Virus record (IMG/VR): IMGVR_UViG_3300025392_000001
Coordinates: 1 to 37,376 of that record
DNA: 37,376 bases
Source of the DNA: a virus
Lineage: Duplodnaviria > Caudoviricetes
Strand: one strand, 5' to 3'
Part shown: positions 20,983-27,122 of the stretch, piece by piece
Layout: each line of letters opens with the position of its first letter
How positions within the stretch are numbered: position 1 is the stretch's first letter
The notes under the pieces: model-generated
The model's database searches: none
The model's input: only the letters and a program-made list of their open reading frames with translations
What the model was told of the DNA's origin: nothing
Position numbers and translations under genes: made by a program

Positions 20983-21432
20983 ATGATTGAACAAGAATTA
21001 ATTAAGGTATTCTCAACAACCTTTGTCACATACTATAAAAGTCATGCGGCACATTGGAATACCACTGGACGCAATTTCTACTCAGATCACAAATTGTTAA
21101 ACAAGATCTATGAAGATATTTTTGATAGTGTTGATGACATTGCTGAAATTGCCCGCACACTAAAGATTGAAGTTCCCTGTGTATTAAGTGATATCATTGC
21201 TGATAGCCTTGTAGCAGATGCACCAATTGTTGACGATGGTGATGGCGATGAATTCTTACAGGCTGTCTATGATGATATTGAAACATTGATCACTGCATTT
21301 CACGATCTAGAAGAAATCACAAACACAACTGAATACAGCCATATTAATAACTTTGCACAAGATCGTGTTCGTAGTCTACAGAAATTCTGCTGGATGCTAC
21401 GAAGCACATTAGATAACCGTAGTATTTTCTAA
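20983..21432 (+). CDS. dps: Dps / ferritin-like DNA protection protein
   Basis: HWNTTGRNFYSDH...YEDIFDSVDDIAE gives the ferroxidase pattern (H, H+12, D-x-x-x-E); C-terminal KFCWML. Confidence 0.85.
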   Translation: MIEQELIKVFSTTFVTYYKSHAAHWNTTGRNFYSDHKLLNKIYEDIFDSVDDIAEIARTLKIEVPCVLSDIIADSLVADAPIVDDGDGDEFLQAVYDDIETLITAFHDLEEITNTTEYSHINNFAQDRVRSLQKFCWMLRSTLDNRSIF

Positions 21433-22790: not shown

Positions 22791-22819
22791 AATTTACAGG
22801 GTATTTAGCATTTTGTCAA
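22791..22819 (-). promoter_or_regulatory. Leftward sigma70-type promoter with embedded TAAATA
   Basis: Minus strand TTGACA-N17-TAAATT; the spacer contains cTAAATAc (22802-22807). Confidence 0.7.
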
Positions 22820-22889: not shown

Positions 22890-23082
22890 ACATGTAGGAC
22901 GAGAATTCCTGTTTTGTTTCTCCAAACTTCTTAGGGTTTACTTTTAACTCGTCCTACACTGATTATTGCGTGTCAATTCTTTAATTGTTGATATTGATCT
23001 TTCTCCACGGCAGGCTGAAATCAAATAACCAATGATCAGTGTGGAAACCCGCTAGGTGCAATGCCTAAGCGGGTTTTCTTTT
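22890..23082 (+). ncRNA. Putative antisense/regulatory small RNA (~190 nt)
   Basis: Own promoter; stem 22893-903/22948-58 (11 bp perfect), stem 22956-68/23030-42 (13 bp, one GU), terminal terminator; loops complementary to phage RBS/leader sequences; no ORF in the track. Confidence 0.7.
23044..23082 (+). terminator. Rho-independent terminator ending the sRNA
   Basis: gaaacccgct-agg...cct-a-agcgggttttctttt. Confidence 0.8.
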
Positions 23083-23096
23083 GACTAAAATTCCTG

Positions 23097-23135
23097 TTGA
23101 CATAATTTTTGGTTTCCTGTAAATTTGTATAAATA
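23097..23135 (+). promoter_or_regulatory. Rightward early promoter plus TATAAATA
   Basis: TTGACA (23097)-N17-TAAATT (23120), the same CCTGTAAATT as the leftward promoter; TATAAATA at 23128-35. Confidence 0.7.
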
Positions 23136-23236
23136 GAAGTACAGCCTTGCCGCTACCTGGAGAGAGATCTATAAGCAAAGATCTAAAATTGCTTGGTTAA
23201 GTTCGCACCTAGCGACAACAATTAAAGGAAATTAAA

Positions 23237-23935
23237 ATGAGTATTTTTGAAGAAGTTAAAGCCCGCATACAGAGCGGAAATAATATTAAACACTTAACAC
23301 TAAACACTAAACATTTAACATTAGATACTAATACACTAGATTTGCCCTCTGGCGAGGGCGAAACAAGTGACCTATTGAGGCTAAAGCCTCCGTCTGGCCT
23401 CGCACCAGAGGTGCTCTCTCCTCAGGTAGGGGTCAGTAGTTCTGGAGAGGTAATTCCCGCTTTGGTAAACGCAGACTTTCAATATATCGCAGTTAGTCTT
23501 AAAACACAAACCAAAGAAGAACGCATTGAAGTTAATGTAGATTTCAAACTACAGAACAGCACAACTTTTAATAAGTTAGTGTTCAACTTAGTAGGATGGA
23601 ATCGTCGCAGAGAGTTTTTTGATAACATTCAAGAAGTTGCTGATTGGCATGGTTATCAATCAGCATACAAACAACAGACCAAACCAGATTACATTGGTAA
23701 AGGACGCCCTAGATCCAAACAGAAAAAAGGAGCAATTCAGCGTACTCCTATTAGAGAAGAAACAGCAATGATGGTTTCTACAGAAGAACAATTGATGTGC
23801 CACTTATGGATTGAAGACGCACATTTTGTTTTACCATTTGATCCTTGGAGTGATGCTCGTAAAATATTTTGTGCCAAAGCAGAATATGTTAACAATCCAG
23901 GTAGCAAGCGTATCAAGCGTGGAGGTTGGTTATGA
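23237..23935 (+). CDS. Hypothetical protein, candidate replication-associated gene containing a putative origin
   Basis: First gene of the early operon, RBS AAAGGAA; 5' part carries 7-bp repeats and clustered hairpins. Function is inferred only. Confidence 0.6.
   Translation: MSIFEEVKARIQSGNNIKHLTLNTKHLTLDTNTLDLPSGEGETSDLLRLKPPSGLAPEVLSPQVGVSSSGEVIPALVNADFQYIAVSLKTQTKEERIEVNVDFKLQNSTTFNKLVFNLVGWNRRREFFDNIQEVADWHGYQSAYKQQTKPDYIGKGRPRSKQKKGAIQRTPIREETAMMVSTEEQLMCHLWIEDAHFVLPFDPWSDARKIFCAKAEYVNNPGSKRIKRGGWL
23287..23328 (+). repeat. Six degenerate tandem 7-bp repeats (consensus TAAACAC), iteron-like
   Basis: taaacac ttaacac taaacac taaacat ttaacat tagatac. Confidence 0.8.
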
Positions 23936-26040: not shown

Positions 26041-26299
26041 GGCAGTGGGAACAAAATTAGTAATTGAGCGTGTGGAACGCGAACAACAAACAGCAGGTGG
26101 TATCTTTATCACCAACCAAGCAGATCCAAACCCCTTGGCTGTGGTTCTAAGCAAGGGTGATGATGTCACTATCAAAGTCAATGAAGGTGACAAGATCGCA
26201 GTATTGTGGGGCAACACAGCCACACAGCCCTACAACGGCAAGAACTATTATATAGTGGATCAAACAGGCGTCACAGCCGTGGAGAAAGAAAATGACTAA
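26033..26299 (+). CDS. groES: GroES-like co-chaperonin
   Basis: IKAVGTKLVIE...QQTAGGIFI (mobile loop)...AVVLSKG...VNEGDKI; RBS AAGGAA. Confidence 0.8.
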   Translation: MIKAVGTKLVIERVEREQQTAGGIFITNQADPNPLAVVLSKGDDVTIKVNEGDKIAVLWGNTATQPYNGKNYYIVDQTGVTAVEKEND

Positions 26300-27122
26300 T
26301 ATATTGCCAATCCATAGCAAAGATGGACACACCTATTGGGTTGAAGAAGGTGATACTCTTTATATCCAGCGTTTACAAGCAGGACAATATCAAAGAACAA
26401 ACTGGAAGTTTGCTCAAACACTTGTTGATGTTTGGACACGAGCCTTAGATGTTGGAACCAATAATGCTTGTAATGCTATTCATTATGCCAAACGATTTGG
26501 ATATGTAGAATGTTTTGAACCTACGCCATTAGCACAACAATTATGGACTAACACCGTTAGAGACAACGGAACACAAAATGTTATTTTACACAAAGTTGGA
26601 TGTGGTGAAAAACAATACGCAACGGAAATTATAACTCATTGGAAAAATGGCGGACACAATCATTTAACTCATTATGACAAAAATCCACGCACTCATCAAG
26701 AGCGTAGCACACGCCTTAAAGTTCCAGTTCAGGTTGAAACTATAGATTCTTATAATTTTCAGGATGTTGGTTTTATTAAAATTGATGTTGAAGGTTATGA
26801 AAAGTTTGTACTAGAAGGTGCCCAACAAACTATTGCTCGTTGTCGCCCAACCATTCAATTAGAAATTGTGGCTAATCAATGTCGCAAATTTAATTATAAA
26901 GCAGAAGATATGATTGAATGGATTCGTTCATTGGATTATACTATTGTAAGTAAAAATCGCGGAAATTTATATGGTAAGTTTAGTAGTAATGCTCGTCAGG
27001 TGCTTTATGAAAATCAACATTATAAGCGTGAAATGGACCTATGGTTTCAACCTAATGAACGAGTGCGTCCAGAAATGACAAAAGTAGATACATTTAAAAT
27101 ATTATTTGAGGAAATAAAATGA
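26292..27122 (+). CDS. FkbM-family SAM-dependent methyltransferase
   Basis: ALDVGTN, VECFEP, FIKIDVEGYEKFVLEGA...RPTIQLE. Confidence 0.9.
   Translation: MTNILPIHSKDGHTYWVEEGDTLYIQRLQAGQYQRTNWKFAQTLVDVWTRALDVGTNNACNAIHYAKRFGYVECFEPTPLAQQLWTNTVRDNGTQNVILHKVGCGEKQYATEIITHWKNGGHNHLTHYDKNPRTHQERSTRLKVPVQVETIDSYNFQDVGFIKIDVEGYEKFVLEGAQQTIARCRPTIQLEIVANQCRKFNYKAEDMIEWIRSLDYTIVSKNRGNLYGKFSSNARQVLYENQHYKREMDLWFQPNERVRPEMTKVDTFKILFEEIK

Follow-up and report, generated by a model that had tools for sequence, protein, structure and literature searches.

A predicted antisense RNA and its target leader form a conserved cassette in a 37-kb freshwater phage with T4-late-type promoter boxes

Introduction

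What holds the non-structural operon of a phage in check when no protein repressor can be recognized in its genome? The question is raised by a virus record of 37,376 bp, complete and flanked by direct terminal repeats, recovered from 2017 freshwater metagenomes and analysed here over its full length, which is referred to below as the window. The phage encodes its own virion genes, with an SU10-like capsid, portal and adaptor and a large terminase, together with a ferritin/Dps-like protein, GroES, an FkbM methyltransferase and several HNH nucleases. Among its 47 ORFs there was no DNA polymerase, helicase, primase, integrase, CI-like repressor or sigma factor, and none of these gene classes appeared among the 30 ORFs searched in NCBIfam. 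At a divergent junction past the virion operons lies a structured non-coding unit, directly ahead of gene 23237. The original prediction, made from the letters of the DNA, read this unit as an RNA-only repressor that is aimed at the adjacent leader and keeps the element quiet until a helper arrives, in a genome without a clear CI repressor; on the last point the searches agree with it, as neither a CI-like repressor nor an integrase was found.

Several observations place the phage in its setting. Comparison with GenBank phages by blastn returned nothing relevant, contigs assembled from four DNA runs held no variants, and the GC skew of the genome gave no clear origin. The ferritin/Dps-like gene (20983-21432) closes the virion operon and was found in 19 of 19 near-complete relatives. 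No sign of a lysogenic state was seen. The only match in prokaryote genomes was one 3.2-kb contig (L246), binned in an uncultured Actinomycetota MAG and carrying a 69% identical capsid gene; a contig of this length does not give a reliable link to a host. Rfam matches to isrG at 14.9-15.2 kb were sub-threshold, lay inside a repetitive ORF and were rejected.

The predicted RNA unit and its promoters

The locus had been described as a promoter-to-terminator unit with long stems (22890-23082), and this is borne out both by a promoter that matches the sigma70 consensus at every position and by the fold of the predicted transcript (Table 1). The RNA folds at -63 kcal/mol with a z-score of -6.55, a stability that none of 200 shuffles equalled. 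By folding, its architecture consists of hairpins H1 and H2, followed by a terminator hairpin and U-tract; a simple terminator scan missed this last hairpin, which folding reveals.

Table 1. Features of the cassette and of related sites, in coordinates of the window
Feature	Position	Strand	Remarks
TAAATA boxes (examples)	2360, 14419, 16771, 24676, 27980, 28087, 34353, 36803
Leftward promoter	22791..22819	-	TTGACA-17-TAAATT with TAAATA at 22802-07; serves genes 22784/22593/22084
P1	22857..22889	+	TTGACA-16-TATAAT at 22857-84 (sigma70 consensus, 12/12), overlapping T4-late-type TAAATA (22884-89); start predicted at 22892-22896
Predicted non-coding RNA, ~190 nt	22892..23083	+	H1, H2 and terminator by folding; longest ATG-led ORF 12 codons
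Hairpin H1	22893..22958	+	interior C/U-rich, anti-SD-like; without good target in own genome
Hairpin H2	22959..23039	+	by folding; interior bears anti-leader segments
Segment a, anti-RBS	22977..22990	+	pairs with 23216-23229
Segment b	22996..23007	+	pairs with 23158-69, 12 bp, one G-U
Segment c, conserved exposed seed	23008..23017	+	GGCA core; pairs with 23142-52, one bulge
Segment d	23026..23032	+	7 bp with 23193-99; poorly conserved
Intrinsic terminator	23044..23083	+	-22.5 kcal/mol; conserved GCAAUG loop; holds segment e
Segment e	23050..23059	+	10/10 with 23205-14; in terminator stem, not conserved
P2	23097..23135	+	TTGACA-17-TAAATT at 23097-125 (10/12) with TATAAATA at 23128-35; start predicted at 23132-23141
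Target leader	23142..23236	+	by pairing and folding; c' 23142-52 (TTGCCG core), b' 23158-69, a' and SD 23216-29; hairpins at 23165-84 and 23203-15
First operon gene	23237..23935	+	232-aa orphan; disordered N-terminus, predicted beta-barrel; short repeats at 23288-23329
Predicted second target	26276..26289	+	RBS of FkbM-type methyltransferase gene 26292-27122; 14/14 Watson-Crick with 22998-23011

The two promoters of the cassette stand apart from the other TAAATA boxes of the genome. Of the 12 boxes on the plus strand only those of P1 and P2 scored for a -35 box, the other ten being without one; the boxes ahead of the virion operons have no -35. Across the cassettes a -35 box is found beside P1 in four of the seven close ones but in only one of twelve distant ones, and beside P2 in six of the seven close ones.

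Predicted pairing with the leader of gene 23237

Five segments of the RNA had been proposed to be complementary to the leader, and all five are present and pair as proposed. The strongest contact is that of segment a, in which 22979-90 and 23216-27 form 12/12 Watson-Crick pairs and which extends to 14 bp with one G-U (22977-90 with 23216-29); a Watson-Crick helix of 12 nt was reached by 4 of 2000 dinucleotide-shuffled leaders. In the cofolded duplex, a, b and c pair in colinear order and mask 23216-29, including the SD of gene 23237. These three segments had been described as both colinear and exposed. Their colinearity stands. Exposure is more limited: the unpaired stretches (P 0.9-1.0) in the free RNA are 8 nt at the start of a (22979-90) and 5 nt at the start of c, and b is mostly paired.

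The remaining two segments fare less well. Segment e has 8 of its 10 nt inside the terminator stem, and because d and e fall outside the colinear order of a-c and neither is intact in the two closest relatives (G002/L004 and L006), both are probably incidental and were rejected as functional contacts, leaving a, b and c of the five proposed. The SD of the free leader is not sequestered (P unpaired 0.4-0.7). An activating role for the RNA was considered and rejected, given that the free SD is open and that segment a covers it.

Conservation in close relatives

Protein homology identified three separate loci whose upstream region is complete: L004 (the same as G002; 76% amino acid identity), L006 (70%) and L007 (55%). 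Further relatives were found by synteny (G043), by a DNA pattern that contained the seed pair (G005) and by a covariance model that likewise contained it (G001), so that the seed was selected for in the last two. Matches to DNA patterns scanned against IMG/VR were mostly due to chance: one scan gave 46 loci, the real ones being L029 (=G002) and L030 (=G005), and another gave 39 loci, with only the window's copies, G002 and G005. Covariance model R1, run on 50 records, regained its two training genomes and found G001 weakly (E 0.019); no weight was placed on its other weak matches.

The RNAs of the close cassettes share 48-70% identity among themselves (52-70% for the six related cassettes). 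All of these cassettes keep the TAAATA box, H1, the GCAAUG hairpin, the terminator and the second TAAATA, and in all of them the mRNA bears, close to its 5' end, a TTGCCG core that lies opposite a GGCA core in the RNA. The cassette is wholly inverted in G001 and G043. The first gene behind it codes for the 232-aa orphan in four cases; two others have an unrelated protein of 332-338 aa, and one has a protein of about 130 aa. The occurrence of the same cassette ahead of three unrelated first genes indicates, at the level of sequence, that the RNA and its leader travel together as one unit.

In all seven close cassettes the RNA cofolds better with its own leader than with shuffled ones, of which 0, 3, 0, 3, 0, 0 and 0 of 100 paired equally well. 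H1, used as a control, cofolded with the leader no better than shuffles (44-282 of 300 equal) and so not above chance. Six related cassettes pair with their own, differently worded leaders, even where an unrelated first gene follows, and it is this retention of pairing through sequence change that supports the earlier reading of an RNA-only repressor aimed at the adjacent leader. Segment b of G002 forms 8/8 Watson-Crick pairs in different letters; G005 has an 11-bp anti-RBS helix, G043 a 14-bp helix across the SD and G001 a 7-bp helix across the AUG, while G052, which belongs to another phage family, has an entirely different seed (8/8) plus an anti-SD helix. A helix covering the SD or AUG is kept in G000, G002, G005, G043, G001 and G052.

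With the seed removed, only 7 of 5040 permutations of RNAs and leaders matched the cognate pairing, and the cognate RNA was best for its own leader in only three of seven columns; in the full cofold matrix it was best in five of seven. Column-wise covariation in a three-row MAFFT alignment gave a score of 0.148, with 417 of 500 shuffles as high, a null result that arises because indels shift the helices out of register. The support from covariation is found in the per-genome duplexes.

The interior of H1 (22904-22947) has a homologue in G002 (L004 about 2689-2701) that pairs over 12-13 nt with the RBS and AUG of a leftward gene. The H1 of the 37-kb phage, which is without a good target of its own, may address helper or host mRNAs.

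Breadth of the cassette and predicted second targets

A layout rule that takes no account of pairing (TAAATA, no long ORF, terminator, TAAATA) was applied to 104 sequences and returned 22 matches. Nineteen were kept, in 14 of the 23 genomes of at least 28 kb, three partial records and two loci; those dropped were G044, with a 57-codon ORF, a nested match in L007 and a second, short unit in G052. By this rule the cassette is absent from nine of the 23 near-complete genomes, in a linear scan that could miss cassettes at contig ends. In two of the genomes that carry it, G051 and G052, nothing matches the capsid of the window, and the cassette therefore spans two phage families; one of the 14 near-complete genomes is from the second family. 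A stricter rule without the second promoter found eight units among 580 TAAATA sites, every one of them with the next TAAATA within 18-52 nt, compared with 1/950, 2/955 and 1/870 for control hexamers.

Cofolding against start regions fixed at -45/+15 placed the cognate leader of the window at only 5/45; such a span cuts off b' and c', the method leaves loop-loop contacts unmodelled, and an accessibility-based score was used in its place. This score ranked 32-49 start regions per genome. The adjacent leader came first or second in 9 of 16 genomes, against 0.8 expected, and was poorly ranked in G027 (34/41), G029 (35/44) and G051 (20/32). The best other target lay within 7.5 kb downstream in 11 of 16 genomes (4.4 expected), a clustering of second targets in the downstream operon for which the nominal p of 0.0006 is too small because the genomes are related; G032/G036 and G015/G016/G028 are related groups, so that the counts are not independent. 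For the other start regions of its own genome the cognate RNA was ranked first in only 3 of 16, the anti-SD loops pairing with many genomes.

In the window itself, the predicted second target is a match that the original prediction had overlooked. Segment b together with the start of c (22998-23011) is perfectly complementary to the RBS of gene 26292, the longest such match in the genome, and one that 7 of 2000 shuffled RNAs reached. In G051, where the gp23237 homologue is the second gene, the RNA pairs over 17 nt with the RBS and AUG of that gene.

Three further arrangements resemble the cassette. The gp23237 homologue of G054 lies on the strand opposite a long hairpin and terminator (L253:281-480) that run leftward from a divergent TAAATA. 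Judged by eye, this unit seems able to pair with the homologue's leader, and it may be the cassette in inverted form. G044 and G045 carry TAAATA, H1 and terminator without a second TAAATA about 2.1-2.3 kb past the Dps gene, and G004 has a very long H1-like hairpin 0.2-0.8 kb past it; the rule counts none of these three.

TAAATA boxes and probable helper dependence

All 13 TAAATA sites in the window lie at gene borders and none deep in genes, whereas 34/40, 26/39 and 22/37 of the sites of control hexamers (59-85%) lie deep in genes. A phage with a 59% identical capsid and annotated Cro, Erf, SSB and RusA (MW202484) shows the opposite pattern, with 11 of 11 TAAATA sites deep in genes and none past the capsid gene. 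Among relatives of the window, a TAAATA box follows the capsid gene in 72 of the 75 that could be scored (80 loci, five of them too short).

The late promoter box of phage T4 reads TATAAATA. In the available part of PMC2988020, T4 late promoters are described as having an 8-bp TATA box at -10 and no -35 element, and as being read by gp55 together with gp33 and gp45. The promoters studied here resemble them in having a TAAATA-type box at gene borders, just upstream of starts and mostly without a -35; they differ in that their 37-kb phage showed neither a gp55-like gene nor one for a clamp or a polymerase. No sigma factor was found among the core genes, nor any Sigma70_r2/r4 match in a six-frame search of the genome, gp55 being too divergent for Pfam models to exclude a phage-encoded equivalent. 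With all TAAATA boxes at gene borders, and with searches for a sigma factor, polymerase, integrase and repressor all negative, a T4-like helper is likely for this phage; the whole family, which encodes its own virion, may depend on the late transcription of such a helper. The helper dependence proposed at the outset thus gains independent support from the genome-wide pattern of TAAATA boxes and from the missing sigma factor and polymerase.

Proposed action of the RNA

The layout of the unit, its complementarity to the leader, the conservation of this complementarity with changed letters and the TAAATA boxes at both promoters can be read from the genomes themselves. For transcription of the RNA, its pairing in vivo, repression and timing, we infer the following sequence of events. 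The antisense RNA probably represses translation of the non-structural genes at several targets. The exposed seed c would make the first contact, at the 5' end of the P2 mRNA, and the duplex would zip through b until a covers the SD of gene 23237 and blocks its translation; the b/c segment would block at least one more gene of the operon (26292) by masking its RBS. Because P1 and P2 join a host sigma70 consensus to a T4-late-type box, the RNA could be made with and without a helper, from P1 by host polymerase alone and again after a T4-like helper brings late transcription. In the absence of a helper it would thereby keep the non-structural operon low; it would switch the operon off late, and stand in for a protein repressor. 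In this clade host polymerase alone could transcribe RNA and target alike, so that the RNA would hold the operon down ahead of a helper's arrival, in line with the original prediction. The late box in P1, and the lack of a -35 in 11 of 12 distant cassettes, fit late shut-off better than a resting-state lock, which suggests that late shut-off is the more general role.

The same pairing might, instead of or before a block of the ribosome, cause premature termination or RNase cleavage within the leader, the former being how P4 CI acts according to the available part of PMC4825925. The most conserved contact, c/c', lies 11-20 nt past the TAAATA of P2 and 26-96 nt before the AUG, and is far from the SD in long leaders, as would suit such a mechanism. 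The helices that cover the SD or AUG in the six genomes listed above argue against it, as do the second targets, which centre on the RBS, and a terminator scan that found no intrinsic terminator in the leader; we consider it unlikely, if the foremost of the alternatives. Close behind stands the idea that the RNA is mainly a weapon against mRNAs of the helper phage or host, as with SviR of PLE, which regulates both genomes in the available text of 10.1101/2022.04.08.487710, the match to its own leader being secondary self-regulation. H1 interiors do hold anti-SD and anti-AUG words, that of the window lacks a target within the genome, and P1 carries the late box alone in most distant cassettes; the longest and best-conserved matches nevertheless sit in the phage's own operon, and a mainly offensive role seems rather unlikely.

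Repression by a diffusible RNA also has to be set against a switch in cis, in which read-through from P1 makes a long leader whose a, b and c segments fold back on it. Such a read-through RNA does fold with all three segments paired, at -108.6 kcal/mol, and in the close clade RNA and leader are always adjacent. Every close cassette, however, places a strong terminator (-17 to -23 kcal/mol) and a second promoter between the two, and distant targets (gene 26292, 3.4 kb away, and the second gene in G051) are easier to reach for a free RNA, which makes a cis switch improbable, more so than the two preceding readings. Least credible of all is chance complementarity, or the functionless relic of an old inverted duplication. 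AT-rich sequences pair readily and segments d and e do look incidental, but the cognate pairing persists where sequences differ by 30-50% and where the gene has been replaced, and another family shows it again with a different seed, so that this explanation is strongly disfavoured.

Relation to known antisense RNAs

The original prediction named the C4 RNA of P1 and the CI RNA of P4 as analogues. The working of the three is similar; Rfam searches and layout speak against membership in either family. C4 of P1/P7 (RF01695) is, in the available part of PMC12197685, a structured trans-acting phage RNA whose loop segments pair at the leader and RBS and block translation, and its sequence specificity could give heteroimmunity. 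The predicted RNA shares this feature in its modelled fold, where most of a and of c is free of pairs and a masks the SD. C4 differs in being 77 nt long, compared with a predicted primary unit of about 190 nt. It targets antirepressor (ant) mRNA, and the predicted targets here are non-structural genes for which no match to an antirepressor family was found. The RNA here is also set off by a promoter and terminator of its own, ahead of a distinct promoter for the target, in a phage genome where no protein repressor was found. The C4 covariance model RF01695 gave no match in the genome at E <= 10, and Rfam none at the locus at E <= 1; on the relatives, Rfam gave only two sub-threshold matches, ctRNA_p42d and fstAT.

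The satellite phage P4 is not known to have a capsid, portal and terminase of its own, all of which the phage described here encodes. As set out in the available text of PMC4825925, its CI RNA is processed from the transcript of its own target, has pairing partners on both sides (seqA upstream, seqC downstream) and acts by termination; it resembles the RNA predicted here in exerting RNA-only control over a non-structural operon of a helper-dependent element through several short complementary boxes. The present RNA is a predicted primary transcript with targets downstream only, and the cassette has its own terminator and a separate downstream promoter; no antisense match of at least 10 nt was found upstream, except for the RNA's own hairpins. 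CI also gives a lysogen immunity; no integrase was found in the present phage. SviR of the Vibrio cholerae PLE, which represses translation of the helper ICP1 and alters PLE processing, is likewise a multi-target trans-acting sRNA of a helper-dependent element in the portion of 10.1101/2022.04.08.487710 available; the targets detected here are the element's own genes, a distinction drawn from the description of SviR.

Taken at the level of sequence, the cassette is a real, conserved antisense unit that resembles C4 and CI in mode and is a member of neither family. No description of such a cassette was found in the available text of the literature on phage antisense RNAs or on small or satellite phages with late promoters of the T4 type, nor, in the literature searched to the same extent, any capsid-encoding phages that run on T4-like late transcription. 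The cassette adds an RNA family without an Rfam model, present in two phage families, in which a regulator and its target leader co-vary and move as one before unrelated genes, and it hints at a class of capsid-encoding phages seemingly run on the late transcription of a T4-like helper. A wider picture may be sketched tentatively: widespread phages of 28-40 kb might build their own virion while borrowing late transcription, and probably replication, from T4-like helpers, with one multi-target antisense RNA under a dual host/late promoter replacing the protein repressor, holding down the non-structural genes and giving clade-specific immunity through co-varying seeds, and with H1 perhaps directed against helper mRNAs.

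The genes behind the cassette

The product of gene 23237 falls into no PHROG, Pfam or NCBIfam family, and its model has no Foldseek match at E <= 0.001 and no Atlas match; fold comparison gave weak beta-barrel matches only, the best with Z 6.4 and rmsd 3.2 over 87 aligned residues. The unrelated 332-338-aa protein that replaces it behind the cassette (L030:1695-2711 and L218:13599-14597) has 82 homologues, no Pfam family, and PolA-like motifs seen by eye only; the model of the 338-aa form is poor (pLDDT 50.5) and matched nothing, and the protein is possibly a replication protein. At the 5' end of gene 23237, at about 23282-23335, lie short repeats, which in all homologues correspond to NTKH-like peptide repeats in the disordered region and could be iteron-like DNA sites.
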